Below the pieces are notes generated by a model that was not told the origin of the DNA, ran no database searches, and saw only the letters and a list, made by a program, of their open reading frames with translations. Below, piece after piece: positions 24,025-52,325 of a stretch of 64,000 bases of DNA (the stretch's first letter is position 1; each line of letters begins with the position of its first letter). Location of the stretch: the NCBI GenBank assembly GCA_964291295.2, contig OZ219754.1:1408001-1472000 (forward strand), in the 5' to 3' direction. The stretch is from an uncultured Candidatus Binatia bacterium (GTDB taxonomy: Bacteria; Desulfobacterota; Binatia; UBA9968; JAJDTQ01). A program made the translations under genes and the position numbers.

Positions 24025-25848
24025 ATGAAAAGGACGAGGAGAATATTGATGTACGGAATGATGCACGGGATGATGCACGGGATGATGCACAGGAACCTGG
24101 CGGCGGTCTTCTGCGCGGTGGTGTTGGCCTTCGGGCTGGCGGCATGCGGAGGCAGCAGCAACAACAACCGGACCCCGGCGACGACCCCGGATCCGCCGCC
24201 GGCGGGGCCGACGGCAGTGGAGACGGCGATCAAGGAGGCCCGGACGGCGGCGATGGCGGCGTCGGGCAAGGCCAAGACGGCGTCGGACAACGCGGGGACG
24301 TCGGCGGATGAGGCGGAAGCGGCGATCCTGGGTGTCGTGCCCGTTTTCACTCCCAAGGGGGAGATGACGGCGAAGAGCTACGCGGATGCGGCCCGGACGG
24401 CGGCGGACATGGCGAAGGCGGAGTACGACAAGGCCAAGATGGAGTCGGACAAGGCTGCGGCCACGAGCGACTTGCGTGTGGCGGCCCAGGCCGAAGTCGC
24501 AGCCGAGGCGGCGCAGGCGAAGGCCGAGGCTCAGGCGGCGATGGCCGCGGAAAAGGCGAAGATGGCGAAGGAGGCCGCGGCCAAGGAGGTTCGGCGTGTC
24601 GAGGGCATGACCTACAGGTACGGCGACACGACCATCACGGCGGGTGCACCCTATGCCAAGCTCACGACCGGGGGCAAGACCATCGAGACCGGCAAGCGCG
24701 GCAACATCGACGAGAAATCACGGAATTACCGAAAGGAACCCGTCCAATACGTGGCGGCAACGGCAAACAAGCCGGAGGTGGTTTCCCGGACGGGAATCCA
24801 TGCACGGACCATCCCCGTCGGTTCCTACAACGACTCGGAGAAGTCCCGTTTCTGGCTGATGGACAAGTATGTCCGCAACACCAAGGGGGTGAAGGCCTAC
24901 CGCAGGGCGAAGGACGCCAGCGATCAGCCCATCAACGTGACCGCCCCGATCACGGTCGAGAACCCGTTCGGTTCGGTCACGGTAGGGGAAAAGACCTACA
25001 AGGTCATGCGGGCGGAGGGGGAGTTCCATATTCTTGATACCCCGGAGTCGAAGAAACTGGACAAGACGAATGCCTGGGACTGGATCAATGGGGGCACCAA
25101 GGACGCGAATGCGGGCGTGGGCGTCTACTACTACAACAACGGCAGCAAGGACATCTATCTTCTGCGCACCGGAACGAGCGGGACCGACAACTTCACCTAC
25201 CGGCAGATTTTCGTCTACGATGTGCCGGATTTCCCGGAGGCGAGGCCCTATGAGCACATGAACTACGGGATGTGGCACACGCAGAAGTCAGGCAGGACCA
25301 ACCTTGGCATCTCATTCGTCACGGTGCTGCCCGATGGCGAGGGCATGACCCCGGCGGCCAACATGCCAGGCTTCGGCAGTGCCACCTACAGGGGTAATGC
25401 AATTTGGCAACACCGCGCACAGCACGCTCAAGGCGAAGGAGGTATCTCCGGTCTTGACGGAACCTCAACCACAACGGTGGATTTCGGGAAAAGCACCATC
25501 AAGACCGATATTTATCGCGCGCACTTCTTGTTGCAAGGCGGATATGACGGGATTATCGCCACATTCCACGGCACCATCGACGGGAACGGGTTCTCGGGCA
25601 GCAAAGTGACCAATGTCAACGCCGAAGGCGCCGGCTACGATACACCGGGATTTCTGGCTGGCTATCAGGCCCGCCATCGTACTGCATTGAAGCTGGCCAC
25701 GAGCGTGGACGGCAGCCTGTACGAGGTGAGGGAGTACAGCGGCCATTTCTTCGGGCCGGACGCCGAAGAGGTGGGCGGCGTGTTCGACATCACGTCCAAG
25801 GACAAGAAGAACGGCGAGTTGCGCGGCTCCTTCGGCGGCCGCAGGTAG
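24025..25848 (+). CDS. Surface lipoprotein A: Ala-rich stalk plus C-terminal TbpB-like beta-barrel (predicted Slam substrate)
   Basis: Lipobox LAA-C, Ala/Lys/Glu coiled-coil, MP..GSATYRG, GHFFGPDAEEVGGVF...GSFGGRR; directly upstream of a Slam gene. Confidence 0.85.
   Translation: MKRTRRILMYGMMHGMMHGMMHRNLAAVFCAVVLAFGLAACGGSSNNNRTPATTPDPPPAGPTAVETAIKEARTAAMAASGKAKTASDNAGTSADEAEAAILGVVPVFTPKGEMTAKSYADAARTAADMAKAEYDKAKMESDKAAATSDLRVAAQAEVAAEAAQAKAEAQAAMAAEKAKMAKEAAAKEVRRVEGMTYRYGDTTITAGAPYAKLTTGGKTIETGKRGNIDEKSRNYRKEPVQYVAATANKPEVVSRTGIHARTIPVGSYNDSEKSRFWLMDKYVRNTKGVKAYRRAKDASDQPINVTAPITVENPFGSVTVGEKTYKVMRAEGEFHILDTPESKKLDKTNAWDWINGGTKDANAGVGVYYYNNGSKDIYLLRTGTSGTDNFTYRQIFVYDVPDFPEARPYEHMNYGMWHTQKSGRTNLGISFVTVLPDGEGMTPAANMPGFGSATYRGNAIWQHRAQHAQGEGGISGLDGTSTTTVDFGKSTIKTDIYRAHFLLQGGYDGIIATFHGTIDGNGFSGSKVTNVNAEGAGYDTPGFLAGYQARHRTALKLATSVDGSLYEVREYSGHFFGPDAEEVGGVFDITSKDKKNGELRGSFGGRR
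24046..24093 (+). repeat. 12-nt in-frame repeat ATGATGCACGGG (MMHG) x3-4 in the signal peptide region
   Basis: Direct reading; also present at about 49088-49135. Confidence 0.9.
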
Positions 25849-25886
25849 TAAACAGGTCGCCGTCACCGGCGGTGGTTCACGGAGCG

Positions 25887-25928
25887 GGGCGCCCGATCCA
25901 TCTCCGGATCGGGCGCCCTTTTCTTTTT
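25887..25928 (+). terminator. Intrinsic terminator/attenuator between lipoprotein A and slam
   Basis: 13-bp stem GGGCGCCCGATCC/GGATCGGGCGCCC followed by TTTTCTTTTT. Confidence 0.8.
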
Positions 25929-25952
25929 CGACAGCCGCCGGGGAGGCTGTGG

Positions 25953-27060
25953 ATGAACCGTTACACGAGTTTCGTTGGCATTTCGTTGGCACAATGCTGC
26001 TCGCGCTGGTTCTGGCGACCGCGCCCGCGGAGGGCCAGCAGCCGCCTCCGGAGCTGTCCGCCGAGGCGCTGATCGATACCGCGCGGGCGGCCTTGGCAAA
26101 GGGCGAGCCGGAAGACGCCGCGTTCCTGCTCGACGGTGTGAAACCGGGCGAGGGGAACCCCGACGATCTCGACTTTCTGCGCGGCTCCATCGCGATGCAG
26201 CGCGGGGAGTGGCAGGAGGCGATGGCACGGTTCCGGGCGATGCTGGCGCGCAATCCCGATCTGCCCCGGGTGCGGCTCGACTTGGCGTTGGCCTATTTTC
26301 AGGCAGAGGATGACGGCAATGCGGCCTGTCATTTCCGCCTGGCGCTGGGTGCGAAGGACCTGCCCGAGACGGTGCGCGCCTCGGCGCTCGCCTTCCTCCA
26401 CCGCATCCGGCGGCGCAAGCGATGGTCGGTTACCGGCTCGGTGGCGGTTGTGCCCGACACCAACAGCAACGCCAGGACCGATGCCCGGGAGATCCTCCTG
26501 TTCGGCCAGCGGGCCACGCTGTCGGAGGATGCGCGCCGGACCAGCGGCGTCGGGGTGACGGTCAGCCTGTCGGGCGGTTACGAAGGGCGGATTTCGCCCG
26601 ACCTGCGGTTCCGGGTCGGCGGCGGGCTCCGGACGCGAACCTGCCGGGAGAGCGATTTCAACGAACAGATCGTCGAACCTGTACGCCGGGCCGCGCTTCC
26701 TGTTCGACAAGTTCGACCTGCGTCCCGACGTAACCGCGCGGCAGCGCTGGCTCGGCGGCACCGCCTGCAGCTTGGCGCTGGGTATCGGGCTTTCGGGCGG
26801 GGCAGACATGGCGGCTGGGCGCGTCGCTCAGTCGCGAGCGGATCGACTACGAGGAGGGCAATCTCGGCGAGGGCAACCTCGATTCCGTCGGGCTCAACCT
26901 CACCCATGCGCTGGACAAGGCGACGCTGTTGCGGGCCGACATCACATGGAGCAGTGAGACGCTGGACCTGGACCCCCATTCCTGGCGTGAGTTCCTCATC
27001 GGATTGACGGTTTCACGCGAGTTGCCCCCGGGCTTCGTGGCCAGCGGGGGGACCACTTGG
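25953..27060 (+). pseudogene. Disrupted Slam (DUF560) copy
   Basis: Near-identical to 51000-52100 but with an 11-nt duplication at 25970-25991, +1 G near 26675, an 11-nt deletion near 26798, and truncation just before the IS end. Confidence 0.85.
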
Positions 27061-27077
27061 TTCTTGGCAGATGGCTC

Positions 27078-27771
27078 AGCATATTCCAACAAGAAGATGA
27101 GCCTGTGCAGGGGGCCGCGGGAGGGTTGAGGGAGGCAGAGTGGAGGAGTTGCCTCGTGAGGGTAATCCATGAGCTGTTTTCGGGAGAGGTTTCTGGAAGA
27201 GACAGGGTATCGGAGGGGGTGCGGAGGGGAGAGGAAGTGATCAAGGAGAGTGGTCGATGGAGAGGAAGAGGTGGTTGCGGGCGGCGTTGAGGGCACGTGC
27301 GGCTTGCAGGCGGCTCGTGGCGTGGGCTTGGGCGTCGAGGGTGGCGAAGGAGATGCCGGGTTTGAGCGAGGCTGCGGCGTCGGGGAGGGAGCGGAACCTG
27401 GCGTAGGGGGTGCAGACGTCGCCGGGGCGATAGACGCGCTGGATGGAGCCGGGGTGCTGGGAGGGGAACAGACAGGGGCGGTGGTAGTTGAGGAAGGGGG
27501 AGATGTGCTGGCGGAGGAAGGCATCGAGCAGGGGGCGAAGCGCGTGGGCATGGCCGAGGAAGCGTCGCAGGACGTGGGCATTCTTGCTTTCGACAAGGGA
27601 GTTGTCGGTGGAACGCCGTGGTCGGGACTTGGTGAAGTCTCGGACATGCAGTTTGTTGAGGAGTGTGGTTGATGTACTCCGAGCCATTGTCGGCATGGAA
27701 ACCGAGGATGACGAAGGAAAACAGGCCGATTCGCTTCACGCTTTCAGGCTCACTTTGCATTGGACAAGACT
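27078..27771 (-). mobile_element. Internally deleted IS remnant retaining the rve/DDE catalytic 3' part
   Basis: GFHADNGSEYIN, FTKSRPRRSTDNSLVESKN, FLNYHRPCLFP, TPYARFRSLP; same terminal sequences as 22837-23606. Confidence 0.8.
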
Positions 27772-27936
27772 GGGTTTCGCCAGGGCGCGAGAAATGTTGT
27801 AAGCTCGGTGATCCGGGGCCGCCCCGGGTTCGGTGCCCGGCCTCGGTGCCCGGCCTGAGGCTTGGGCGGCGTTGCCGCCGTCAGGCCCGAACCGACAACT
27901 CGGCGAGTACCGAGAGTGGAAAGCGAGTCGCGAGTG

Positions 27937-29100
27937 ATGTTCGACAAGGCCAAGCGCATCCAGGAGTTGCCGCCGTATCTGTTCGCCGAGATCGACCGGA
28001 AGAAGCGGGCCGCACTGGCAAGGGGAGTGGATCTGATCGACCTGGGGATCGGCGACCCGGACCTCCCCACGCCCGGAAGGATCATTCAGCGGCTTGCGGA
28101 GACCGCCGCCGAACCGGCCAACCACCGCTATCCCAGCAGTGCGGGCATGATGGCGTTCCGCCAGGCGGTGGCCGACTGGTACGGGCGTCGCTTCGGCGTG
28201 ACCCTGGACGCCGCCACCGAGGTGGTTTCGCTCATCGGCTCCAAGGAGGGGGTGGCCAACATGGCCGTGGCCTTCGTGGACCCCGGCGACGTGGTGCTGG
28301 TGCCCACTCCCGCCTATCCGGTGTACGAGATCGGCACCCGATTCAACGGCGGCGAGGTCTTCTCGCTGCCGCTGCGGCGCGAGAACGGCTTCCTGCCCGA
28401 TCTGTCGCGCATCCCCGGGGACGTGCTCGAGCGGGCGAAGATGCTGTGGCTCAACTATCCCAACAACCCCACCGGCGCGGTGGCGGACGAGCGTTTCCTC
28501 AAGGACGCGGTGGATTTCGCCCGCCGCCACCGGATCGTCCTGTGCCACGACGCCGCCTACACGGAGCTTGGCTTCGACGGCTATCGCGCCCCCAGCATCC
28601 TGCAGGTGGAGGGTGCGAAGGACGTTGCCATGGAGTTCCATTCGCTGTCGAAGACGTTCAACATGACCGGCTGGCGCATCGCCATGGCGGTGGGCAACCC
28701 GGAACTGGTGGGAACCTTGGCCCAGGTGAAGTCCAATGTCGATTCGGGGGTCTTTCAGCCCGTGCAGCAGGCGGCCATCCTCGCCCTCGAGCACGCGGAG
28801 GATTTTCTCGGACCCATTCGCGAGGTCTATCAGGAGAGGCGGGACACCTTGATCGATGGACTCCAGCGGGCGGGCTTCGAGCTCCCGCCGCCCCGGGCCA
28901 CGTTCTACGTCTGGCTGCCCGTCCCCCACGGATGGACATCCACGGCCTTCACGGCCCGTCTTCTCGACGAAGCCGGCATCGTCACGACTCCGGGCAACGG
29001 CTTTGGCGAACCCGGCGAGGGTTTCATCCGGATGACGTTGTGCTCTCCCGCCGACCGTCTCGAGGAGGCCGTGGAACGGCTCCGGCGGGTCAGCCTGTAG
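27937..29100 (+). CDS. dapL: LL-diaminopimelate aminotransferase-like class I aminotransferase
   Basis: LPPYLFAEID, LIGSKEG, NYPNNPTG, HDAAY, SLSKTFNMTGWR. Confidence 0.8.
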   Translation: MFDKAKRIQELPPYLFAEIDRKKRAALARGVDLIDLGIGDPDLPTPGRIIQRLAETAAEPANHRYPSSAGMMAFRQAVADWYGRRFGVTLDAATEVVSLIGSKEGVANMAVAFVDPGDVVLVPTPAYPVYEIGTRFNGGEVFSLPLRRENGFLPDLSRIPGDVLERAKMLWLNYPNNPTGAVADERFLKDAVDFARRHRIVLCHDAAYTELGFDGYRAPSILQVEGAKDVAMEFHSLSKTFNMTGWRIAMAVGNPELVGTLAQVKSNVDSGVFQPVQQAAILALEHAEDFLGPIREVYQERRDTLIDGLQRAGFELPPPRATFYVWLPVPHGWTSTAFTARLLDEAGIVTTPGNGFGEPGEGFIRMTLCSPADRLEEAVERLRRVSL

Positions 29101-29110
29101 CGGCGGGACC

Positions 29111-29623
29111 GTGCCGCATCGCGCCTACATCGGGGTGGGCTCGAACCAGGGGAACAGGGAGGCCAACTGCCGCCGCGCCGTCGGCGAGATCGGACGGATG
29201 CCGCAAACCCGTGTGCGGCAGGTTTCGACATGGTTCACCACCGAGCCGTGGGGCGCGGCCAGCACCCAATGGTACGTCAACGGCGTCGTGGCGGTGGACA
29301 CCGGACTGCAACCGCGGACCCTCCTGCAACACTGTCAGGCTCTCGAGAGAAAGATGGGCCGCCGACCCAGCCCGCGGCGCTGGACGGACCGGGTGATGGA
29401 TCTGGACATCCTCTTTTTCGATGATATGGTTCTGGATGGAGCGGACCTGACCATCCCGCACCCGGAGCTTCACCGGCGCCGGTTCATGCTCGTTCCGCTG
29501 TGCGAAATCGCGCCGGACCTGGAACACCCGCGTCTGGGAAGCGATATCCGGGGGCTCCTGGCCCGGGTCGAGGACGACAAGCGGGTCCGCAAGGCAGCCT
29601 CCGCCGGGGGCGCCGGCCATTGA
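29111..29623 (+). CDS. folK: 2-amino-4-hydroxy-6-hydroxymethyldihydropteridine pyrophosphokinase
   Basis: AYIGVGSNQG, RVMDLDIL, LTIPHPELHRRRF. Confidence 0.93.
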   Translation: MPHRAYIGVGSNQGNREANCRRAVGEIGRMPQTRVRQVSTWFTTEPWGAASTQWYVNGVVAVDTGLQPRTLLQHCQALERKMGRRPSPRRWTDRVMDLDILFFDDMVLDGADLTIPHPELHRRRFMLVPLCEIAPDLEHPRLGSDIRGLLARVEDDKRVRKAASAGGAGH

Positions 29624-29636
29624 CCGCGGCACTGCC

Positions 29637-29870
29637 ATGTTCCTCAGGTTCCTGATACTGGGTTTGCTGGTCTATCTGTTCCTGGTGCTGCTCTACTCGG
29701 GCATCCGGCGCAAGGGCAGGGGAGACGGCGCCGACGCGTCCCGGGGCGAATCCATGGTGCTCGACCCCCACTGCAAGAGCTACGTCCCCAGGAACGAAGC
29801 CTACCGTTCGCACGGCCACTACTTCTGCAGCGAAGCGTGCGCCCAGGCCTACGCCGGCCCGCAGGGTTAG
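29637..29870 (+). CDS. Small membrane-anchored TRASH/YHS-like metal-binding protein
   Basis: N-terminal TM, MVLDPHCKSYVP...YFCSEAC. Confidence 0.75.
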   Translation: MFLRFLILGLLVYLFLVLLYSGIRRKGRGDGADASRGESMVLDPHCKSYVPRNEAYRSHGHYFCSEACAQAYAGPQG

Positions 29871-29937
29871 GCCGCATTCATTCCTCCGGCAGCGGCCCGT
29901 GGAGACCCCTCTCCACCCGGCCCGCGGCTTGGCACGC

Positions 29938-30507
<570 letters not shown>

Positions 30508-30520
30508 GTCCTGTTCCGCG

Positions 30521-32026
30521 CTACCGCTCTTTCCGCCAGGCTTCCGCCAGTTCCATGGCCTTGAGCATGCCGCGCGCCTTGTTGAGGGTCTCTTCGTACT
30601 CGGCGGCCGGATCGGAGTCCGCCACGATGCCGGCGCCGGCCTGAATGACGGCCTTGCCGTCGTGAACGGTCATGGTGCGGATGGCGATGCAGGTGTCCAG
30701 ATTGTTGTCGAAGCTCAGGTAGCCCACGGCGCCGGCGTAAAGCCCCCGCCTCTGCGGCTCCAGTTCGCTGATGATCTGCATGGCCCTGACCTTGGGCGCT
30801 CCCGAGACTGTCCCGGCGGGGAAGCAGGAGCCGAGCAGGTCCAGCGGCGTCTTCCCGCGCGCCATCTCGCCCTTGATGTTGGAGACGATGTGCATGACGT
30901 GGGAATAGCGCTCGATGGTCATGAGCTGGTCCACCTCCACCGAGCCGACCCTGGCCACCCGGCCCACGTCATTGCGTCCGAGGTCCACCAGCATGATGTG
31001 CTCCGCCCGCTCCTTGGGGTCGGCCAGCAGCTCCGCCTCCAGGTCCCGTTCTTCCTTGGCGTCCCGGCCGCGCGGCCGGGTGCCGGCGATGGGCCTCAGC
31101 TCGATGTGCCGCCTGGTGAGGCGGACGAGTATCTCCGGGGAGGAGCCGATGATCTTGAGGTCGTCCAGTTCCAGGAAGAACATGTAGGGGGAAGGGTTGG
31201 TGAACCGGAGGGCGCGGTAGATCTCGAACGGCTCGACCCGCGTGCGCGCCTCCAGCCGCTGGGACAGAACCACCTGGATGACATCCCCCGCCGCGATGTA
31301 CTCCTTGCCCTTGCGCACCATGTCGTGGAAAGCCTGCGGCGTGACGTTGGAGCGGTACCGGACGCTGGATCCGGAACCGGTGAGGCTCCGGGCCTCCAGG
31401 GTCTTGGGTGATTTCCGCAGCGAGGAGCGCAGGTTCTCGATGCGGGAGACGGCGTCGCCGTAGAGGGCCCGGAGGCGTGCGCCCTTTTCGATGACAACGT
31501 TGTCGATGATGGTGATGGTGTGCTTGAGGTTGTCGAAACTCACCAGGGTTCGCACCAGCAGAAAGTAGACGTCGGGGAAGCGGCTGGCCCGTTCCCGCGC
31601 GTTGGCAACCCCGTGCAGCCTCTCCACGGCGTCGTAAGCGACGTAGCCCAGCGCACCGCCGGTGAAGGGAAGGTCCGGCAACACGGTGGCGGGCCGGTAT
31701 CCCGCGACGATCTCCGCCAGCGCCTCCAACGGGTTGTCGCAGGTCCACGACTCCGTCTTCCCCCCGCGCCTGCCCTCCCCCCGCGTGATCTCCACGTCGC
31801 GGCCCCATGCCCTGAAGACCAGTTCGGGCGCCGTGCCCAGGAACGAATAGCGCGCCCAGCGCTCGCTGCCTTCCACGCTTTCCAGCAGGAACGCGTGGCG
31901 GCTCTTCCTGAGCCGGTTGTAGAAGGATACCGGGGTCTCGAGGTCCATCAGGGTCTCTTCGCAGACCGGCACCACGTTGCCCTGTCTGGCGAGTTCCGCG
32001 AACTCGCGGTACGAAGGCTGGATCAT
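30521..32026 (-). CDS. trpE: Anthranilate synthase component I
   Basis: LLES Trp-feedback motif, NPSPYMF, RPIAGTRPRG, EHIMLVDLGRND, GAPKVRAM. Confidence 0.93.
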   Translation of the reverse strand: MIQPSYREFAELARQGNVVPVCEETLMDLETPVSFYNRLRKSRHAFLLESVEGSERWARYSFLGTAPELVFRAWGRDVEITRGEGRRGGKTESWTCDNPLEALAEIVAGYRPATVLPDLPFTGGALGYVAYDAVERLHGVANARERASRFPDVYFLLVRTLVSFDNLKHTITIIDNVVIEKGARLRALYGDAVSRIENLRSSLRKSPKTLEARSLTGSGSSVRYRSNVTPQAFHDMVRKGKEYIAAGDVIQVVLSQRLEARTRVEPFEIYRALRFTNPSPYMFFLELDDLKIIGSSPEILVRLTRRHIELRPIAGTRPRGRDAKEERDLEAELLADPKERAEHIMLVDLGRNDVGRVARVGSVEVDQLMTIERYSHVMHIVSNIKGEMARGKTPLDLLGSCFPAGTVSGAPKVRAMQIISELEPQRRGLYAGAVGYLSFDNNLDTCIAIRTMTVHDGKAVIQAGAGIVADSDPAAEYEETLNKARGMLKAMELAEAWRKER

Positions 32027-32054
32027 GGATCTCCTGCGTAACATGAAAGGGTGG

Positions 32055-32519
32055 ATGATGGAACGCCGCCCCCGGCGCCGGGGCGCCGCCGCGCTGGCTT
32101 GCGCGCTCCTGCTCGGGGCTCAGGCCGCCTGCCGCCACGCTCCGTCGGTGGTCTTCGAAGGTCCCGATGGAACCCGGGTCCGCTTCCGGGTGGAGGTGGC
32201 CGACACCGCCGAGAAGCGGCGGTGGGGGTTGATGTACCGCCGCCACCTGGAGGCGGACCAAGGCATGCTGTTCGTGTTTCCGGAAGAGAAGGTCCAGTCG
32301 TTCTGGATGAAGAACACACCCCTTTCCCTGGACATCATTTTCATGGACCGGAGCCGTCGGGTGGTGGGGATCGTCCGTGATACCGTGCCGTTCTCCACCC
32401 GTTCCGTGGGCGTGGCGGCACCCAGCCGGTATGTGCTGGAGGTGCGCGCCGGTCTGGCGCGCCGTCATGGCATCGCGGTGGGCGCCGCCGCCCGCTTCCG
32501 GCGCGTCAGATCTCCCTGA
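32055..32519 (+). CDS. DUF192 family protein
   Basis: VEVADT, GLMYR, GMLFVF, FWMKNT, DIIF, YVLEV. Confidence 0.88.
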   Translation: MMERRPRRRGAAALACALLLGAQAACRHAPSVVFEGPDGTRVRFRVEVADTAEKRRWGLMYRRHLEADQGMLFVFPEEKVQSFWMKNTPLSLDIIFMDRSRRVVGIVRDTVPFSTRSVGVAAPSRYVLEVRAGLARRHGIAVGAAARFRRVRSP

Positions 32520-33573: not shown

Positions 33574-33749
33574 CGAGTTCACTCCTCAAGGCCGACGCGG
33601 CTCAAGGCTGGCCCCGGGCGCGCACCCCGTCCTTTCATGTTCCAATGGCTGCTGGTAGACTGCCGACAGGGACAGGGAGGGCCGGCGCCAGGCAACGACT
33701 TTCCCTGCAGAGCATACAGGCTGGGCCCGGGTAAGAAAAGGGGAGGGTT

Positions 33750-41896: not shown

Positions 41897-41972
41897 TGCT
41901 TGGACCCGGGCCCGCGGCACCGCCCGGAGGTTTGCCGCGGGCCGCCGCCGCGCCCCATGTCAGTCGCGCTCC

Positions 41973-42986: not shown

Positions 42987-43893
42987 CGGCCTTGGCGGCC
43001 TCGACGCGAAGACGCTCACCGAACCGGCGCCCGGCGCGGGAGTCTGGCGCGAGTTCCGGCGCCACAAGGGAGCGGCGGCCGGCGCCGCGGTGTTGCTGCT
43101 GCTGGGTTTGATGGTGCTGTTCGGGCCGACCGTCCACCGGGTCGATCCACGGCACGTGGACTACCCGGTCCGGAACCGCGGCCCGTCGCTGGCGCACCCC
43201 ATGGGAACCGACAATCTGGGCCGCGACATGCTGGCGCGGGTGCTGGCCGGGGGGCGGGTCTCGCTGGCGGTGGGGGTTGCCGCCATGGTCCTGTCCATCA
43301 CCCTCGGGACCTTCGCCGGCGTCATGGCCGGATTCTTCCGGCGGTTGGACGGTCCGCTGATGCGGTTCACCGACATCTTTCTGGCGCTTCCGGTGCTGCC
43401 GCTGCTGCTGGTGGGCATCATGCTGTTCCGGGATCCGTTGCGCACCGCCCTGGGACCGGAGGCGGGCATCTTCATCCTGGTGGTGGCGGTCATCGGCATG
43501 ACCAACTGGATGCAGACGGCCCGGGTGGTTCGCGGGGAGGTTCTGGCGGTCAAGGAGCGGGAGTTCGTGCTTGCCGCCCGAAGCGCCGGCGCGGCCCCGC
43601 GCCGCATCATCCTGAGCCACGTACTGCCCAACGCCCTGAGTCCCGTGATCGTGGCCGCGACCCTGGGGGTCGCCAATGCCATCATTGTCGAAAGCTCGCT
43701 CAGCTTCCTCGGCCTGGGCTTTCCGTCCGATTTTCCCACTTGGGGCCGCCTGCTCCATGATGGTGTCCCGTTCCTTGAGATCGCTCCCGCGCGGGTGTTC
43801 TGGCCCGGCCTCGCCATCTCGCTCGCCGTCCTGAGCGTGAACTACATGGGGGACGGCCTGCGTGACGCTCTGGATCCGCGGGTGCGGCGATAG
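42979..43893 (+). CDS. Peptide ABC transporter permease (OppC/DppC-like)
   Basis: HPMGTDNLGRD, EFVLAARSAGA, HVLPN, GDGLRDALDPR. Confidence 0.93.
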   Translation: MTDGLGGLDAKTLTEPAPGAGVWREFRRHKGAAAGAAVLLLLGLMVLFGPTVHRVDPRHVDYPVRNRGPSLAHPMGTDNLGRDMLARVLAGGRVSLAVGVAAMVLSITLGTFAGVMAGFFRRLDGPLMRFTDIFLALPVLPLLLVGIMLFRDPLRTALGPEAGIFILVVAVIGMTNWMQTARVVRGEVLAVKEREFVLAARSAGAAPRRIILSHVLPNALSPVIVAATLGVANAIIVESSLSFLGLGFPSDFPTWGRLLHDGVPFLEIAPARVFWPGLAISLAVLSVNYMGDGLRDALDPRVRR

Positions 43894-43928
43894 CCGGGTG
43901 CGCCGGCGCGACCGGCGCGGGCGGGAGA

Positions 43929-44570
43929 CTACCGCGGCACCGGCCGGCTCAGACAGCGAAGCCCGGTTTCGTCGTCCAGGGCATACCAGAACCGACCGCC
44001 GTTCAGGGCCAGGCATCCTGGCCTGAACGGGACGGGAATACGCTCCGCCACCCGCTCGCGCACCGGGTCGTAGCGGATAAACGCGAAGACCGCCTGGTGT
44101 TCATCGCTCCAGTCCCCGAGGGGTCCGGGGTCGCATTCGACACACCAGAGTTCGTCGTCGTGCGAAGTCGGGCTGAAGGTCTGGTGCTCCATGCGGATGG
44201 TCCACAGGGTTCGCCCGTTCTCCGGGTCCATGCAGAACAGCTTCCGGTTGCGCCGGTGGCTGAGCCACAGCCGGCCCTTGACCACCGTCGCGCCGGCGGC
44301 GGCACCGTCCGGGCAGTCGAAGCGGCGCATGACCCGTTTCCGTTCAGGCGACCAGAGGAGCAGCTGCTGTCCCAGCCGGCCACCGCCGGCGACCAGCCAC
44401 ACGCCGTCGCTCGACGGACAGGCGTACCGGACACCGGGAAGCGACAGGACCTGCTCGCAGGACTGGCGGACCGGGTCATGGACGATCACGATGGACGCAT
44501 CCGCGGACGCGAGCCACAGGCGGCCCCGGTGCCACTGCATGCCCGTGATGAGGACTGACCGGATGTCCAT
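43929..44570 (-). CDS. Hypothetical protein, possible beta-propeller
   Basis: Repeating G-x-x-W/LW strand motifs (GRLWL, DGVWL, GRLWLS, DELWC, GRFWY). Confidence 0.5.
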   Translation of the reverse strand: MDIRSVLITGMQWHRGRLWLASADASIVIVHDPVRQSCEQVLSLPGVRYACPSSDGVWLVAGGGRLGQQLLLWSPERKRVMRRFDCPDGAAAGATVVKGRLWLSHRRNRKLFCMDPENGRTLWTIRMEHQTFSPTSHDDELWCVECDPGPLGDWSDEHQAVFAFIRYDPVRERVAERIPVPFRPGCLALNGGRFWYALDDETGLRCLSRPVPR

Positions 44571-45046
44571 CCTTCGCCTTGTATCAGAAACAGGTGCGCG
44601 CGGTGCGGGTCTGCCTCGTCGTCCGGGTCGAAGGCCGATTGCGGCCCGCGGGGAGTCATCCGGGAGTGTGCGCCGCCGGAGGCCTCGGGAGGTGGCCGGC
44701 AGGGACACATCCGTCCGGATTCTCGTCCAGGATGCCGGAAATTCGCTGTCGTGTCCCATTGTCGAACAGAAACAGGGTCTCCATATCGGGCGCCCGCCGG
44801 CTCTTGACAGGGTGGGGCGCCTGTGGGCAAGACGGGGAGGGTTGCGCCGACTGCCGGAGTATTTCACGGCAACTCCCGTGTTGCCGGCCGTACATGTTGT
44901 TTCGGGTCGTACATCTGCTTGCACGGGCTGCCTCACTATGGTAAGGCTTGATCCGACATGGAGCCGGTGTACGTGCGCCGTACTTTCACATATTGCACAT
45001 ATCTGGACACGGAGCGTTCGCCGGGGTCCGTTTGCGGGATCAGGAA

Positions 45047-45116
45047 GGTTTGAGGCCGTCAGTTTCAAGCCGCTGGTTTGAGGCGGTCGGTTTGAGGCCG
45101 TCGGTTTCAGGCGGTC
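45047..45116. repeat. 14-nt tandem repeat GGTTTGAGGCCGTC x5 upstream of the lipoprotein array
   Basis: Units start at 45047, 45061, 45075, 45089 and 45103. Confidence 0.88.
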
Positions 45117-45246
45117 ATTGAAACGCTCAGTTGGCGACGGTTGTTCAGGGACGGTTGGTGGACGTTTTTGTGTTGCGTTACATGAGACGGGATGTTCAAG
45201 AGCTTCGTCCCGAAGCTGTTTCTGAAGGCGAAAGGAGAGTTCGGAC

Positions 45247-46971
45247 ATGAGAAAGATGAGGATGTTGGTGCACAAGAATCTGGCGGCGGTCTGTTGCGCC
45301 ATCATGTTCGCCTTCGGGCTTGCGGCATGCAGTAGCAGCAGCAACAACAAGACGGTGGTGACCGAAGCCGAGAAAACCATAAATACGGCCCGTACGGGGG
45401 CCATGAGTGCGGCGACGGCGGCCAAGACGGCGTCGGACAACGCCAAGGAGGCGGTCGATGAGGCGGACGCGGCGGTCATGGCTGTTGCCCCCATTTTTAC
45501 GATGACGGGCGGCGATGACGGCACCGTGAATCTGGCCGGCCTGGTGAAGGAGGGCCGCGATGCGGCCGGCATGGCGGAGGAGTACAATCAAGAGACCAAG
45601 ATGGAGTCCGACAAGGCTGCGGCCGCGGAAACGGTGACGGCGGCAGCCGATGCCAGGGCGAAAGCGGAGTTGGCCCAGGAGAAAGCCGAAGCCCAGGCGC
45701 GGATAGCCGCTGAAAAGGCCAAGATGGCGACGGATGCCGCCGCGAAGGGAATCAAGGTCTCCGGCGATACGGACATGGCGAGGACGTACGGTTTCGGCGA
45801 CACTTCCATCACTCCCGCCGCCTTGCCCAAGAAAAATTCGGACACGAGTGTGGTCAACGGCAAGACGGTCACGAAGACGACGGGCCTCATAGGTACGGCC
45901 GACGGCCACGCCCCCATGGTGGATGTCGCCGCAGTCATGTACCTGGCCAAGAGCGGCAGTACTCCGGAGCGCAAGGCCAAGCCGGCGATCGAGAAACGGA
46001 CGTTTACGTTCGCCAAGGCATACGACTCGGCAGACGACGGAAGCCGCCTCTGGCTCGCCACCCAGTATGCCGCTGGCAGGGCCGTGCACACGTTCCGTGA
46101 CACCTCTGGCTCGCTCGATCTCGAAAAGACCGACGATGCGACATGGGGCGCTCACGATCATGACAGCGACTCCAGTACGGCGAAGCTGAAGGTGATGAAG
46201 GCGACCGGCATGTTCTACATGGCCTCCGGCTCGGGGGCTTTTGACCAGACGAACCCCTCGAGCGCCACGATCGAGGACGAAACGAAGGTGAACAAGGATA
46301 TCTTCTACTACCAACATCCCACCGAAGGGAAAAAGTGGTTGAGGCGGACCCAGTCCGTGACCCCCACAGGCGAAGCGACCACTCATACCTATATGAACGT
46401 GAGCGTCGTCGAGAATGTCATGGGCTTTCCGGTGGCGACCGACTACATACATGTCAACTACGGCATATGGATCGGCAATCTGAAGGCCGACGGTGACGAC
46501 AGCGACGCCGACCTTACCGAACTTGGCACGGGGTTTGCCTCTGCCAAGGCGGGCAAAGGCATGACCGGGGAGATGCCGGACTCCGGCACGGGCACCTACA
46601 AGGGCTCTTATCTCGTGTCCTATCGCAAGGCCCACGCGGATGGCAACGGCAGCCTCATGTCCAGTGCGAATCACTCGACAGTGACGGCGGACTTCGCGAA
46701 GGCGACCGTGATGGTCGATTTGCATTCCCTCGCCAAGCTTGAGGGCACAATCGCCGGGGACAGGTTCTCGGGAACCAAGGTCTCCAGCGTGACCGGTATG
46801 GTGGGCGAGACAGCGGTTCTGACGGCAAGTGCGGACGGCAGCGGTTACACGGGCAGTTTCAGCGGCGGTTTCTTCGGACCCCAGGCGGCGGAAGTCGGCG
46901 GCGTGTTCTCCTACACGTCGAAGGACAAGAAGAATGGCGAATTCCGTGGCTCCTTCGGCGGAGCCAAGTAG
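45247..46971 (+). CDS. Surface lipoprotein B, Ala-rich stalk plus TbpB-like barrel
   Basis: LAA-C lipobox; MPDSGTGTYKG; GGFFGPQAAEVGGVF...GSFGGAK. Confidence 0.85.
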   Translation: MRKMRMLVHKNLAAVCCAIMFAFGLAACSSSSNNKTVVTEAEKTINTARTGAMSAATAAKTASDNAKEAVDEADAAVMAVAPIFTMTGGDDGTVNLAGLVKEGRDAAGMAEEYNQETKMESDKAAAAETVTAAADARAKAELAQEKAEAQARIAAEKAKMATDAAAKGIKVSGDTDMARTYGFGDTSITPAALPKKNSDTSVVNGKTVTKTTGLIGTADGHAPMVDVAAVMYLAKSGSTPERKAKPAIEKRTFTFAKAYDSADDGSRLWLATQYAAGRAVHTFRDTSGSLDLEKTDDATWGAHDHDSDSSTAKLKVMKATGMFYMASGSGAFDQTNPSSATIEDETKVNKDIFYYQHPTEGKKWLRRTQSVTPTGEATTHTYMNVSVVENVMGFPVATDYIHVNYGIWIGNLKADGDDSDADLTELGTGFASAKAGKGMTGEMPDSGTGTYKGSYLVSYRKAHADGNGSLMSSANHSTVTADFAKATVMVDLHSLAKLEGTIAGDRFSGTKVSSVTGMVGETAVLTASADGSGYTGSFSGGFFGPQAAEVGGVFSYTSKDKKNGEFRGSFGGAK

Positions 46972-47182
46972 CAGGTCGTCGTCGGTTCACTGAGTGGGGC
47001 GCGCTGTCCATCTCCGGACCGGGCGCCTCGCATCGTGGCGGCTGACGGGCGGAAGCCACGCGGTTCCGGGCAATGATCGCCAAGGTTGTTTTCGCCGGGA
47101 CCGTTTGGGGACGTTCCACGAGACAGGATGTTCAAGGGCTTCGTCCCGAGGCTGTTTCTGAAGGCGAAAGGAGAGTTCGGAC

Positions 47183-48943
47183 ATGAGAAAGATGAGGATG
47201 TTGGTGCACAAGATGGTACACAAGAACTTGGCGGCGGTCTGTTGCGCCGTCATGCTCGCCTTCGGGCTTGCGGCATGCAGTAGCAGCAGCAACAAGACGG
47301 TGGTGACCGAAGCCGAGAAAACCATAAATACGGCCCGTACGGGGGCCATGAGTGCGGCGACGGCGGCCAAGACGGCGTCGGACAACGCCAAGGAGGCGGC
47401 CGATGAAGCGGACGCGGCGGTCATGGCTGTTACCCCCATTTTTACCATGACGGGCGGCGGTGACGATCCCGTGAATCTGGCCGGCTTGGCGAAGGAGGCC
47501 CGCGATGCGGCCACCAACGCGGAAAAGTACAATCAAGAGACCAAGACGGAGTCCGACAAGGCCGCGGCCGCGGAAACGGTGACGGCGGCAGCCGACGCCA
47601 GGGCGGCAGCGGAGTTGGCCCAGGAGAACGCCGAAGCCCAGGAGCGGATAGCCGCCGAAAAGGCCAAAATGGCGAAGGATACCGCCGCGATGGGAATCAA
47701 GGTCTCCGGCGATACGGATATGGCGAGGACGTACAGTTTCGGCGACACGTCCATCACCCCCGCCGCCTTGACCGGCAAGAAGGTGGAGACGAGGCTGGTC
47801 AACGGCAAGGAAGTCACGCTGTCGACGAATCTCATAGGCGATTTCAAGGTTTCCCTCAAGGAGGACGTTGCTGGAGTCGAGGGTACGGCTGCGTCAGGGG
47901 GTACCCCGGAGGTCAAGGCCAAGCCGATAATCGAAGCACGCGAGACCTTGGTCGGGAAGATATACGACTCGGCGGACGACAAGACCCGCCTCCTGCTCTT
48001 CACCCACTACACCGGCAGCAAGGTCGTAGGCGCGTACCGCACAGTCAACACCAAGACGGTCGAGGGCAAAGTGACCCCCAATGCGGAACACGGCGAGTAC
48101 GATCATGATAATGATGACGAAACGCCTAGCTTGAAGGTGATGAAGGCGGCCGGTGAGTTCTACCTGGTCACCGGCTCGGGGGCTTTGAGCGCGAGCAGTC
48201 ACACCGACAAGATCGAGAAGGCCACGAAGGCCACCCCGATCTACTACTACACCGAACCCGCCGAGGGATCGACGCCGAGCAAGAAGATCTGGATCGTGCG
48301 AAGCAAGACCAAAGACGAAGCCGGAACGATCACATACGAATACCAGGACGTGAGTGTCGTCGAGAACGTCAAGGGCTTTCCGGTGGCGACTCCCTATCAG
48401 CATCTCAATTACGGCATGTGGATTGGCAATCTGAAAGCCAATGGTGATGACAGCGATGCCGACCTTGCCGAACTCGGAACGGCGTTTGTCGTTGCCAAGG
48501 CGGGCGGCAAGGGTATGACCGGCGGTGACATGCCGGCCAGCGGCACGGCCACCTATGACGGCCATTACGTCGTGACATTTCGCGCCAAGAAAGCGACAGG
48601 CGACGGTCGCTTCCATTACAGGTCGGATCACTCGACATTGACAGCAAATTTCGCGAATGACACCGTCATGGTCGATCTGTACGGCCTCGCCACACTCGAG
48701 GGCACCATCAAGGGCGACTGGTTCTCGGGAACCAATGTTTCCGGGGTCGCTCCGCTGAGCGACAAGCCAGCCAATGATTTTCTTGAGGCGGACACGAGCG
48801 GTGCCAATTACACGGGCACGTTCAGCGGCGGCTTCTTCGGACCCAAGGCTGCGGAAGCCGGCGGCGTGTTCGACTACACGTCGGAGGGCAGGAAGAAGGG
48901 CGAATTCCGCGGAGCCTTCGGCGGAGTCAAGCAGGCGGAGTAG
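47183..48943 (+). CDS. Surface lipoprotein C, paralog of B
   Basis: N-terminal ~190 aa nearly identical to B; MPASGTATYDG; GGFFGPKAAEAGGVF...GAFGG. Confidence 0.85.
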   Translation: MRKMRMLVHKMVHKNLAAVCCAVMLAFGLAACSSSSNKTVVTEAEKTINTARTGAMSAATAAKTASDNAKEAADEADAAVMAVTPIFTMTGGGDDPVNLAGLAKEARDAATNAEKYNQETKTESDKAAAAETVTAAADARAAAELAQENAEAQERIAAEKAKMAKDTAAMGIKVSGDTDMARTYSFGDTSITPAALTGKKVETRLVNGKEVTLSTNLIGDFKVSLKEDVAGVEGTAASGGTPEVKAKPIIEARETLVGKIYDSADDKTRLLLFTHYTGSKVVGAYRTVNTKTVEGKVTPNAEHGEYDHDNDDETPSLKVMKAAGEFYLVTGSGALSASSHTDKIEKATKATPIYYYTEPAEGSTPSKKIWIVRSKTKDEAGTITYEYQDVSVVENVKGFPVATPYQHLNYGMWIGNLKANGDDSDADLAELGTAFVVAKAGGKGMTGGDMPASGTATYDGHYVVTFRAKKATGDGRFHYRSDHSTLTANFANDTVMVDLYGLATLEGTIKGDWFSGTNVSGVAPLSDKPANDFLEADTSGANYTGTFSGGFFGPKAAEAGGVFDYTSEGRKKGEFRGAFGGVKQAE

Positions 48944-49079
48944 TCGGAGTAGTAACAGATCGCCGTCATCGGCGGCGGTTCACGGAGCGAGGCGTCCGGC
49001 GGGACGAAGCCTAGACGCTTGCTGAATGCGTCCTGTGATGCTGCCGGAGGGAAGTTCCGCGCCAAGGAGTTCGAGAACG

Positions 49080-50894
49080 ATGAGGATATTGATGTACGGA
49101 ATGATGCACGGAATGATGCACGGGATGATGAACAGGAACTTGGCGGCGGTCTTCTGCGCGGTGGTGTTGGCCTTCGGGCTGGCGGCATGCGGCGGCAGCA
49201 GCAACAACAACCGGACCCCGGCGACGACCCCGGATCTGCCGCCGGCGGGGCCGACGGCAGTGGAGACGGCGATCAAGGAGGCCCGGACATCGGCGATGGC
49301 GGCGTCGGGCAAGGCCAAGACGGCGTCGGACAACGCGGGGACGTCGGCGGATGAGGCGGAAGCGGCGATCCTGGGTGTCGTGCCCGTTTTCACTCCCAAG
49401 GGGGAGATGACGGCGAAGAGCTACGCGGATGCGGCCCGGACGGCGGCGGACATGGCGAAGGCGGAGTACGACAAGGCCAAGATGGAGTCGGACAAGGCTG
49501 CGGCCACGAGCGACTTGAGTGTGGCGGCCGAGGCCGAAGTCGCAGCCGAGGCGGCGCAGGCGAAGGCGGAGGCTCAGGCGGCGATGGCCGCGGAAAAGGC
49601 GAAGATGGCGAAGGAGGCCGCGGCCAAGGAGGTTCGGCATGTCGAGGGGATGACCTACGGGTACGGCGACACGACCATCACGGCGGGTGCACCCTATGCC
49701 AAGCTCACGACCGGGGGCAAGACCATCGAGACCGGCAAGCGCGGCGGCATCAACGAGGCCTCACGGGATTTTCGAAAGGAACCGGTCCGATACGTGAAGG
49801 CAACCGAAAGCAAGCCGGAGGTGGTTTCCCGGACGGGAATCCATGCACGGACCATCCCGGTCGGTTCCTACAACGACTCGGAGAAGTCCCGTTTCTGGCT
49901 GGTCGAAAAGTATGTCACCAACACCAAGGGGGTGAAGGCCTACCGCAGGGCGAAGGACGCCAGCGATCAGCCCATCAACGTGACCGCCCCGATCACGGTC
50001 GAGAACCCGTTCGGTTCGGTCACGGTAGGGGAAAAGACCTACAAGGTCATGCGGGCGGAGGGGGAGTTCCATATTCTTGATACCCCGGAGTCGAAGAAAC
50101 TGGACAAGACGAATGCCTGGGACTGGATCAATGGGGGCACCAAGGACGCGAATGCGGGCGTGGGCGTCTACTACTACAACAACGGCAGCAAGGACATCTA
50201 TCTTCTGCGCACCGGAACGAGCGGGACCGACAACTTCACCTACCGGCAGATTTTCGTCTACGATGTGCCGGATTTCCCGGAGGCGAGGCCCTATGAGCAC
50301 ATGAACTACGGGATGTGGCACACGCAGAAGTCAGGCAGGACCAACCTTGGCATCTCATTCGTCACGGTGCTGCCCGATGGCGAGGGCATGACCCCGGCGG
50401 CCAACATGCCAGGCTTCGGCAGCGCCACCTACAGGGGTCATGCAGTCTGGCAACGCCGCGACCCGCACGCTCAAGGCGAAGGAGGTATCGGCGGTCATGA
50501 GGGGAACTCAACCACGACGGTGGATTTCGGGAAAAGCACCATCAAGACCAATATTTTTGACTGGCACTACACGTCGCAAGGCGGATCCAACGGGATTCTC
50601 GCCACATTCCACGGCACCATCGACGGGAACGGGTTCTCGGGCAGCAAAGTGACCAATGTCAACGCCGAAGGCGCCGGCTACGATACGCCGGGGTTTTTTG
50701 CTGGCTATCAGGCCCGCCATCGTACTGCATCGAAGCTGGCCACGAGCGTGGACGGCAGCCTGTAGTACGAGGTGAGGGAGTACCGCGGGAATTTCTTCGG
50801 GCCGGACGCCGAAGAGGTGGGCGGCGTGTTCGACATCACGTCCAAGGACAAGAAGAACGGCGAGTTGCGCGGCTCCTTCGGCGGCCGCAGGTAG
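49080..50894 (+). pseudogene. Surface lipoprotein D (paralog of A) interrupted by an in-frame TAG at 50763-50765
   Basis: CTGTAGTAC versus CTGTAC in A; frame continues YEVREYRGNFFGPDAEEVGGVF...GSFGGRR to the stop at 50894. Confidence 0.82.
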
Positions 50895-50932
50895 TAAACA
50901 GGTCGCCGTCACCGGCGGTGGTTCACGGAGCG

Positions 50933-50973
50933 GGGCGCCCGATCCATCTCCGGATCGGGCGCCCTTTTCTTTT
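50933..50973 (+). terminator. Intrinsic terminator/attenuator between lipoprotein D and slam
   Basis: Same 13-bp stem and T tract as 25887-25928. Confidence 0.8.
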
Positions 50974-50999
50974 CCAGACAGCTGCCAGGGAGGCTGTGG

Positions 51000-52325
51000 A
51001 TGCACGTTTACATGAGTCTGGTTGGCACAATACTGCTCGCGCTGGTTCTGGCGACCGCGCCCGCGGAGGGCCAGCAGCCGCCTCCGGAGCTGTCCGCCGA
51101 GGCGCTGATCGATGCCGCACGGGCGGCCTTGGCAAAGGGCGAGCCGGAAGACGCCGCGTTCCTGCTCGACGGTGTGAAACCGGGCGAGGGGAACCCCGAC
51201 GATCTCGATTTTCTGCGCGGCTCCATCGCGATGCAGCGCGGGGAGTGGCAGGAGGCGATCGCACGGTTCCGGGCGATGCTGGCGCGCAATCCCGATCTGC
51301 CCCGGGTGCGGCTTGACTTGGCGTTGGCCTATTTTCAGGCGGAGGATGACGGCAATGCGGCCTATCATTTCCGCCTGGCGCTGGGTGCGAAGGACCTGCC
51401 CGAGACGGTGCGCGCCTCGGCGCTCGCTTTCCTCGACCGCATCCGGCGGCGCAAGCGATGGTCGGTTACCGGCTCGGTGGCGGTTGTGCCCGACACCAAC
51501 ATCAACGCCAGGACCGATGCCCGGGAGATCCTCCTGTTCGGCAGCCAGCGGGCTACGCTATCGGATGATGCGCGCCGGACCAGCGGCGTCGGGGTGAATG
51601 TCAACATGTCGGGCGGTTACGAAGGGCGGGTTTCGCCCGACCTGCGGTTCCGGGTCGGCGGCGGGCTCCAGACGCGAACCTACCGGGAGAGTGATTTCAA
51701 CGAACAGATCGTCAACCTGTACGCCGGGCCGCGCTTCCTGTTCGACAAGTTCGACCTGCGTCCCGACGTGACCGCGCGGCAGCGCTGGCTCGGCGGCACC
51801 GCCTACAGCTTGGCGCTGGGTATCGGGCTTTCGGGCAATTGGCTTGTGGGGCAGACATGGCGGCTGGGCGCGTCGCTCAGTCGCGAGCGGATCGACTACG
51901 AGGAGGGCAATCTCGGCGAGGGCAACCTCGATTCCGTCGGGCTCAACCTCACCCATGCGCTGGACAAGGCGACGCTGTTGCGGGCCGACACCGCATGGAG
52001 CAGTGAGACGCTGGACCTGGACACCCATTCCTGGCGCGAGTTCCTCGTCGGATTGACGGTTTCGCGCGAGTTGCCCCTGGGCTTCGTGGCCAGCGGGGGG
52101 ACCACCTGGCGCTGGCGCCGATACGGCGCGGCTCATCTCTTGTACGGCCCGGAGGCGCGGCGGGAACGGACGCTTGCCCTGCGCAGCACGCTGTCCAACC
52201 GGAATGTCGAGATTTTCGGCTTCATGCCCGAAATCGCCCTGCGCCACGAGCGGCGGGACAGCAACGTCGCGTACTACGACTACACGCGCACGGTTGGCGA
52301 ACTCGGCATGGTCAGGACATTCTGA
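51000..52325 (+). CDS. Surface lipoprotein assembly modulator Slam (TPR + DUF560 outer-membrane barrel; type XI secretion)
   Basis: Signal peptide, TPR with RVRLDLA motif, PDTNIN, RRDSNVAYYDY, terminal RTF; adjacent TbpB-barrel cargo genes. Confidence 0.85.
   Translation: MHVYMSLVGTILLALVLATAPAEGQQPPPELSAEALIDAARAALAKGEPEDAAFLLDGVKPGEGNPDDLDFLRGSIAMQRGEWQEAIARFRAMLARNPDLPRVRLDLALAYFQAEDDGNAAYHFRLALGAKDLPETVRASALAFLDRIRRRKRWSVTGSVAVVPDTNINARTDAREILLFGSQRATLSDDARRTSGVGVNVNMSGGYEGRVSPDLRFRVGGGLQTRTYRESDFNEQIVNLYAGPRFLFDKFDLRPDVTARQRWLGGTAYSLALGIGLSGNWLVGQTWRLGASLSRERIDYEEGNLGEGNLDSVGLNLTHALDKATLLRADTAWSSETLDLDTHSWREFLVGLTVSRELPLGFVASGGTTWRWRRYGAAHLLYGPEARRERTLALRSTLSNRNVEIFGFMPEIALRHERRDSNVAYYDYTRTVGELGMVRTF

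Follow-up and report, generated by a model that had tools for sequence, protein, structure and literature searches.

A multigene family of TbpB-barrel lipoproteins with a Slam exporter and candidate homopolymer switches in an uncultured Binatia bacterium

The stretch of DNA analyzed here (the window) comprises 64,000 nt of contig OZ219754.1 from an uncultured Candidatus Binatia bacterium, and it encodes members of a lipoprotein family with a C-terminal TbpB-type barrel together with Slam, the outer-membrane protein of the type XI secretion system (T11SS). Three cargo genes (A, B and C) and one Slam gene are intact, a fourth cargo gene (D) is broken, and another Slam gene is a pseudogene. A preliminary description of this DNA had listed two Slam genes; the one at 51000-52325 stands, but the one at 25949-27060 is only a remnant. 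B, C and D are arranged in tandem, in keeping with the tandem expansion proposed in that description. Unprefixed coordinates refer to the window and those prefixed C1 to the 3.70-Mb assembly of this genome. The features, with open reading frame abbreviated as ORF, are as follows.

22837..23617, no strand assigned: dispersed repeat X, upstream of the A cassette (self- and genome BLAST)
23612..23640, + strand: sigma-70-like promoter of A, TTGACA-N17-TAAAGT, with a spacer of GT plus G15 (promoter scan)
23641..24024, + strand: 5′ leader of about 385 nt, conserved in A-type copies (four-copy alignment)
24025..25848, + strand: lipoprotein A, 607 residues, intact (ORF, Pfam, structure model)
25886..25919, + strand: intrinsic terminator between A and the Slam remnant, 14 pairs of which 11 are GC, then a T tail
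25949..27060, + strand: Slam remnant, a pseudogene with the TPR part readable, the barrel frameshifted and the 3′ end missing
27078..27772, no strand assigned: dispersed repeat Y, downstream of the A cassette (BLAST)
45247..46971, + strand: lipoprotein B, 574 residues, intact, of the deep B/C subfamily (ORF, Pfam, tree)
47183..48943, + strand: lipoprotein C, 586 residues, intact, 64% identical to B
49080..50894, + strand: lipoprotein D, an A-type copy, broken by an in-frame TAG at 50763-50765 (ORF 49026/49080-50765)
50932..50965, + strand: intrinsic terminator between D and Slam, with a 14-bp stem
51000..52325, + strand: intact Slam, the T11SS outer-membrane protein, 441 residues, with TPR_Slam and SlipAM barrel

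In the translations of A, B, C and D alike, a lipobox (LAAC) is followed by a helical segment rich in Ala, and the lipobox Cys is invariant across 22 aligned family sequences. The Pfam TbpB_B_D domain (PF01298; cut-off 26 bits) is matched at 63.6, 54.5, 52.0 and 36.1 bits by A, B, C and D, respectively. The protein encoded at 51000-52325 matches SlipAM (PF04575, DUF560) at 90.3 bits against a cut-off of 22, covering profile positions 1-278 of 288, and TPR_Slam (PF24575) at 39.7 bits against a cut-off of 35.2, in addition to generic TPR models. Both of the hidden Markov model searches proposed in the preliminary description, PF01298 for the four lipoproteins and PF04575 for the Slam, thus returned matches above cut-off. 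The Slam protein has 321 homologs at E ≤1e-10, two of which are named "surface lipoprotein assembly modifier [Defluviicoccus sp.]".

The structure of A was modeled with AlphaFold2 (AF2) on the 22-sequence alignment, with a mean predicted local distance difference test score (pLDDT) of 84.4. In the model, residues 1-55 are disordered and comprise the signal peptide, with the lipobox Cys at position 41, and a Pro-rich linker. They are followed by helices at 64-100, 116-146 and 150-186 (37, 31 and 37 residues), a β-rich handle at 190-445 and an eight-stranded barrel at 452-606, so that the structure prediction suggested at the outset did yield a barrel of the TbpB type. The long coiled-coil stalk of the preliminary description is recovered as a helical segment, but it is predicted to fold as an intramolecular three-helix bundle. 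Tandem Repeats Finder detected in the helical coding part of A only a 9-bp unit in 2.6 copies (24302-24324) and a 21-bp unit in 2.4 copies (24406-24455). Residues 50-187 of A align with the trypanosome three-helix-bundle receptors 5vtl, 6xz6 and 4e40 at Z 14.8-16.4 and a root mean square deviation (rmsd) of 6.5-7.8 Å; such alignments are common for helical bundles and indicate at most analogy, not homology.

All of the top Foldseek matches of the A model are known Slam cargo, namely TbpB, LbpB, NHBA, fHbp and hemophilin. With VIA-align, the model superposes on the TbpB C-lobe 5kkx_B with Z 16.9 and rmsd 3.4 over 200 residues and on HphA (8gm3) with Z 15.1, while HpuA (Z 13.7) and fHbp both fall within Z 13-14. 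The family sequence profile reaches TbpB C-lobes in the PDB at E 1.9e-15. Pfam, Foldseek, structural alignment and the PDB profile match therefore agree on a Slam system with TbpB-barrel cargo, as was first described. A complex prediction of Slam residues 25-441 with the A barrel (440-607) gave a score of 0.00, which counts neither way.

The A and D regions of the window are related by a single 3-kb segmental duplication, in which 24031-27060 and 49074-52109 are 95.3% identical by self-comparison, and each copy has lost one gene: the D copy its lipoprotein and the A copy its Slam. D has about 93% amino acid identity to A, and a 3-bp insertion relative to A creates the in-frame TAG that removes the last barrel strands; its Pfam match ends at profile position 102 of 126. 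Because of this stop, the end of the D barrel (50766-50891) lies behind the reading frame, and with it the C-terminal GxFFGP...GGVF...GxFGG motif that had been assigned to D. D also lacks the promoter and leader of A. The Slam remnant contains an 11-bp tandem duplication at 25970-25991, a +1 shift at 26675 and a -11 shift near 26798, its homology to Slam stops at about 27060, and Pfam does not match a SlipAM domain in it. A terminator separates the cargo gene from the Slam gene in both copies of the duplication. The conserved 5′ leaders and 3′ elements of the preliminary description are real shared blocks, the 3′ element being this intrinsic terminator with its 14-bp stem. Comparison of A with D reveals a mosaic, with 96-100% identity in most 150-bp bins and the lowest values in the coding blocks 24650-24800 (89%) and 25400-25550 (83%). 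The copy at C1:2164526 has an ORF identical to that of A and flanks that are only 72-95% identical, and this combination of identical ORFs with divergent flanks suggests gene conversion.

The family, of lipoproteins some 600 residues long, extends far beyond the window. A census of the 3.70-Mb assembly by tblastn, read-through translation and Pfam searches gave 19 family loci: 15 intact full-length copies, D with its stop, one frameshifted copy and two fragments. The intact copies include a four-gene tandem array at C1:1549481-1557058. The four paralogous lipoproteins of the preliminary description do each possess the LAAC lipobox and a TbpB barrel match, but one of them is broken and the number of paralogs is not four but 19 loci genome-wide. 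Intact SlipAM genes number two in the whole genome, the one in the window and a 35%-identical gene at C1:884685-885857. In addition there are six decayed Slam remnants, each beside a cargo copy. Downstream of D lies the intact Slam, whereas a Slam remnant lies downstream of A and of each of five further loci, and cargo and Slam have been duplicated jointly in at least seven places. These arrangements are most simply read as repeated copying of a cargo-plus-Slam cassette, followed by decay of the redundant Slam copies. We propose that the one working cognate Slam serves all of the paralogs.

We give very little credence to an alternative in which the lipoproteins never leave the periplasmic side of the outer membrane, or take some other route, while the Slam serves other cargo. 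It would be compatible with the strong terminator between the lipoprotein and Slam genes, with the fact that most copies have no intact Slam adjoining, and with the two to three further ORFs in the genome that show weak partial TbpB_B_D matches. It does not readily account for the joint duplication of cargo and Slam in at least seven places, or for the presence of a barrel with conserved last strands, a property common to all known Slam cargo (PMC5449769, PMC12282271).

The second intact Slam gene, at C1:884685-885857 (L023:6236-7861), has no TbpB-barrel gene adjoining. The ORFs at C1:1650076 and C1:410563 give weak half-barrel matches to PF01298 and could encode its cargo. About 4 kb upstream of it lie ORFs whose N-termini resemble ExbB and ExbD, by eye only.

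Sequence variation was quantified over the 13 intact A-type copies. The domain-mean ratio of nonsynonymous to synonymous substitution rates (dN/dS) is 0.41 in the helices, 0.81 in the handle and 0.78 in the barrel. Entropy peaks at residues 230-232, in a handle loop, and at 465-476, 497-508 and 539-554, in three barrel loops, whereas strands 566-606 are almost invariant. Variation is concentrated in the handle and the barrel loops. The variable middle domain that had been described is not borne out for this large subfamily, in which the peaks of variability are the barrel loops plus one handle loop.

Some of the copies are associated with long homopolymer runs placed where changes in length could alter expression. 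A promoter scan of 22800-27900 returned a single sigma-70-like site, that of A at 23612-23640, with 10 of 12 positions matched and with a G15 run (23620-23634) inside its 17-nt spacer. The same hexamers recur in the three other A-clade copies equipped with a promoter of their own, where the run is G17 and the spacer 19-20 nt. In five paralogs of another clade, all of them outside the window, a C run encoding a Pro run directly follows the lipobox, at C1:351886, C1:874052, C1:1555359, C1:2270508 and C1:2799053; four of these runs are in frame (19, 16, 22 and 19 nt), and the fifth, C20 at C1:2270508, belongs to the only frameshifted copy, with the shift located at the run. One mark of simple-sequence contingency loci is a long homopolymer in the promoter spacer or the 5′ coding region, and this family contains both. 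The G15 run of the A promoter is a candidate transcriptional phase-variation switch, judged from its sequence and position, and it provides a concrete basis, for A, for the possible phase variation raised in the preliminary description, which we consider plausible. Across the chromosome, 35 G/C runs of at least 12 nt were found, 9 of them at family loci and 26 elsewhere.

Upstream of three ORFs with calcium-binding GGxGxD (RTX-like) repeats, at C1:1209576, C1:2138414 and C1:502223, there are likewise promoter-like sites in which a G run occupies the spacer, and these suggest a wider set of potentially switchable secreted proteins. A different type of repeat is found at the start of the signal peptide, where an in-frame 12-bp repeat encodes two to three copies of MHGM in A (24047-24095) and D (49090-49138); such Met-codon-rich repeats differ in copy number among the paralogs. 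The MHGM repeat was rejected as an on/off frameshift switch, because its 12-bp unit is divisible by three and keeps the frame.

The A cassette is bracketed by repeats X and Y, which have common ends of 55 bp on the left and 45 bp on the right. Fragments of X and Y recur beside other family copies, and the two repeats are joined at C1:2533617-2534936. Six ORFs in X and Y have no Pfam or NCBIfam match except for a faint one to rve_3 (E 0.14), which belongs to the repeat Y ORF at 27241-27696 (- strand), and Pfam and NCBIfam searches found no transposase in or beside the family loci. The relocation by an insertion sequence that had been proposed is therefore not supported by any recognizable transposase, only by dispersed repeats and the faint rve_3 match. 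A repeat of about 100 bp that resembles a miniature inverted-repeat transposable element (MITE) lies inside the 5′ leader of A, at 23700-23806, with terminal inverted repeats GGGAAGGTCYGAAC ... GTTCRGACCTTCCC. When the surrounding 181 bp were used as the query, BLAST returned 27 hits on the chromosome, 4 of them at family loci, and the terminal stem of the repeat is present in 17 aligned copies. Rfam gave no match on 22700-24100 at E up to 1.

Relatives of A are few. Among 5.8 billion cluster representatives there were 37 protein matches to A, nine of them from this genome, and the best foreign match is 55% identical. The closest named genome is a metagenome-assembled genome (MAG) titled Candidatus Poriferihabitaceae bacterium, placed in the Gammaproteobacteria by the NCBI taxonomy. 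This MAG contains nine full-length paralogs plus fragments, and a single Slam that is 65% identical to the window Slam and has no cargo gene adjoining. A quick tree put 13 A-type copies in one clade (support 100) with five metagenome proteins as its sister, one Ca. Poriferihabitaceae paralog next outward, and B and C in a separate deep clade. By PyrG and TrpE our genome is equidistant from one gammaproteobacterial and two alphaproteobacterial genomes: PyrG is 57% and TrpE 44% identical to the gammaproteobacterial genome, and they are 55-57% and 38-43% identical to the two alphaproteobacterial genomes. The Slam is thus closer to its Ca. Poriferihabitaceae counterpart (65%) than are the housekeeping proteins (57% and 44%), which points to a shared gene pool. 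The Ca. Poriferihabitaceae paralog loci also hold G/C runs of 12-27 nt and account for 84 of the 261 12-mer G/C matches in that genome. Eight of the nine full-length paralogs have a run between -900 and +400 relative to the called ORF start; in two paralogs a G16 run immediately follows the lipobox and seems to be out of frame. One Ca. Poriferihabitaceae paralog has MKYTDN repeated six times at the start of the signal peptide (L016:1372-1480).

Within the genus, SlipAM was found in 21 and TbpB_B_D in 17 of 24 sampled genomes, and a T11SS seems to be usual in this lineage. TbpB_B_D-matching ORFs in these genomes reach about 1600 residues. The A-type cargo expansion was not found in the 24 genomes, three of which gave weak matches to A. 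Sponge-associated Binatota were formerly labelled Deltaproteobacteria bin18 (PMC9999580), and the deltaproteobacterial-grade lineage suggested in the preliminary description would be compatible with this. A search of the genome for pmoA (PF02461) had no match but is uninformative, as its controls had none either. The portion of the sponge-symbiont literature available to us contained no paper that also treats a transferrin-binding protein, and nothing related on phase variation.

It might be argued that the family reflects a mostly neutral spread of a repeat-flanked cassette, with the G/C runs as by-products of recombination or replication hotspots or of assembly errors. In favor of such a process, four loci out of 19 are broken, decay is evident in six Slam remnants, repeats X and Y and the MITE-like element flank or sit within cassettes, and 26 of the 35 long G/C runs are outside family loci. 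We nevertheless consider it quite improbable, for 15 full-length frames have been kept, with dN/dS of 0.41 in the helices and invariant terminal strands. The run lengths in intact copies (16, 19 and 22) differ by multiples of three, the G run is positioned exactly between the -35 and -10 hexamers, and the association with runs recurs in the second, unrelated genome of Ca. Poriferihabitaceae.

A single TonB-dependent receptor (PF00593) was detected in the whole genome, at C1:3120351, 1.66 Mb away and near none of the 19 loci, in agreement with the earlier statement that no such receptor is adjacent. This bears on the view that the lipoproteins are nutrient- or ligand-capture receptors or hemophore-like scavengers, the paralogs covering different ligands. 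The best structural matches are to TbpB, HphA/hemophilin and HpuA, and a released hemophore needs no adjoining receptor. In a 2017 survey of Slam clusters, 120 of 185 contained a TonB-dependent receptor and only nine contained several lipoprotein genes (PMC5449769). We still regard nutrient capture as unlikely here, given the remoteness of the sole receptor, a handle that matches no known ligand site, and a set of candidate on/off switches and 15 intact near-copies that is ill-suited to housekeeping uptake.

We favor instead, as probable, a reading of the sequence data in which this T11SS cargo family forms a multigene, probably phase-variable surface coat that depends on one exporter and serves in interactions with a host or with phages. 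Following the established Slam/T11SS route, the precursor would be exported by Sec, lipidated at the LAAC Cys and carried to the outer membrane, where Slam would recognize the nearly invariant C-terminal barrel strands and move the protein to the cell surface. The three-helix stalk would hold up a head composed of the enlarged β handle and the barrel, with variable head loops. The unit of spread would have been a cassette containing promoter, leader, lipoprotein, terminator and Slam, and since the redundant Slam copies would then have decayed, one translocon would be left for all paralogs. In the A clade the G run would act as the promoter spacer, with G15 giving the optimal 17 nt in A and G17 giving 19-20 nt in its sisters; in the other clade the C run after the lipobox could shift the reading frame. 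The outcome would be a stochastic, combinatorial variation of the coat toward the host or phages, rather than receptor-coupled nutrient uptake. We infer an adhesin or host/phage-interaction function.

Several observations weigh against this phase-variable coat or narrow it. The NCBIfam equivalog slam_lipo (NF041636; cut-off 80 bits) is matched at only 46.2, 46.0 and 42.8 bits by A, B and C and not at all by D; A, B and C are related to it at the domain level and are not members. The handle taken alone, although modeled with pLDDT 88.4, has a best Z of 4.2 and no match of Z ≥5 among 48,161 chains; since it has no clear structural match, its ligand cannot be inferred, and the head is, in the model, an enlarged TbpB- or hemophilin-like handle without a recognizable ligand site. 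The dN/dS values are below 1 throughout, and relaxed constraint is a possible explanation for them. All run lengths come from one assembly, homopolymers are error-prone, and assembled public contigs (two runs of one study) end inside the G run of A. In Ca. Poriferihabitaceae a -10-like hexamer stands beside the run on the strand opposite to the gene. Finally, any switching would be limited to part of the family, because runs of ≥8 nt are absent near the starts of B, C, D and the genes of the four-gene array (C1:1549481-1555110).

Knowledge of type XI secretion comes chiefly from pathogens among the Proteobacteria and from a few symbionts of animals; their systems usually have a single cargo gene or a small number of them, and an iron receptor often adjoins. 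The Slam1 and Slam2 systems of Neisseria and the Pasteurellaceae (TbpB, LbpB, fHbp, HpuA) likewise encode a protein with TPR and DUF560/SlipAM domains beside lipoproteins with an eight-strand TbpB_B_D barrel. The system described here differs from them in having 19 loci per cognate Slam, candidate promoter-spacer switches in some copies and no TonB-dependent partner, and in belonging to an uncultured, non-pathogenic lineage. In place of two lobes, its cargo has a single barrel with a single enlarged handle, preceded by a predicted N-terminal stalk of three helices. TbpB and LbpB are bipartite, with two handle-plus-barrel lobes and a TonB partner, whereas here there is one barrel and the only TonB-dependent receptor of the genome is 1.66 Mb away. 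The handle-plus-barrel core of hemophilin/HphA aligns with A at Z 15, with 194-203 residues aligned. Unlike the lipidated and stalked proteins of this family, hemophores are small and mostly soluble, and they bind haem; the handle of the family is over twice the size of theirs, and a haem site was not identified.

Phase-variable surface families and promoter-spacer switches are exemplified by the Opa genes of Neisseria and by poly-G spacers of the porA/opc type. There, each of many paralogs is under a simple-sequence switch of its own, located either in the spacer between -35 and -10 or within the 5′ coding region, and combinatorial variation results. The Neisseria proteins are integral β-barrels, whereas those of our family would be Slam-exported lipoproteins, with switching deduced from sequence. 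Homopolymer switching of Slam cargo itself has a precedent in Neisseria HpuA, as HpuAB is switched by a poly-G run in the ORF (PMC3786947). The closest likeness in architecture is Pls, exported by the TepS system of Haemophilus parahaemolyticus (Grossman et al. 2025, PMC12282271), which shares a length of about 525-600 residues and the order of helices, handle or pedestal, and barrel. That 2025 study described Pls-like cargo as a class in which an extended helical region precedes the handle and barrel, and it demonstrated by experiment that Pls is displayed on the surface only with its T11SS protein. Pls has an EEARKA-type repeat helix homologous to staphylococcal Pls, whereas the helices here are Ala-rich, non-repetitive and predicted to form a bundle, so that the two are likened by architecture only. 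The accessible text of PMC12282271 describes neither a multigene family nor homopolymer switches and does not contain the term "phase variation".

What is new is the combination: 19 loci with one cognate exporter and decayed spares, private candidate homopolymer switches that include a promoter spacer, a predicted non-repetitive bundle stalk, one TonB-dependent receptor, and recurrence in an unrelated genome. The name of that genome points to a sponge-associated group. More tentatively, and as something possible rather than probable, the family may be a horizontally shared, Opa-like T11SS coat of unrelated sponge-associated lineages in which each paralog has its own G/C-run switch and which varies recognition by host phagocytes or lectins or by phages. 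The family is in any case a concrete candidate for surface variation by uncultured symbionts, and this bacterium is probably able to alter its coat. Should the assignment to the Binatia be correct, the T11SS would be common outside the Proteobacteria, given SlipAM in 21 of 24 same-genus genomes. The 15 cargo variants with nearly invariant terminal strands could also help to define the feature that Slam recognizes.

The neighborhood of the family genes has some further features. The genes between A and B are housekeeping genes, encoding an aminotransferase, HPPK, TrpE/TrpG, TldD/PmbA, a thioredoxin-TPR protein and parts of an Opp transporter. Just upstream of the A cassette lie an ORF of 1119 residues with a subtilase S8 domain (19600-22959, - strand) and, next to it, a NYN_YacP ORF at 22245-23066. 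A 14-bp tandem repeat of about five copies (GGTTTCAGGCCGTC) occupies 45047-45117, 130-200 nt upstream of B, and TTCAGGC words upstream of the promoter of A resemble it.

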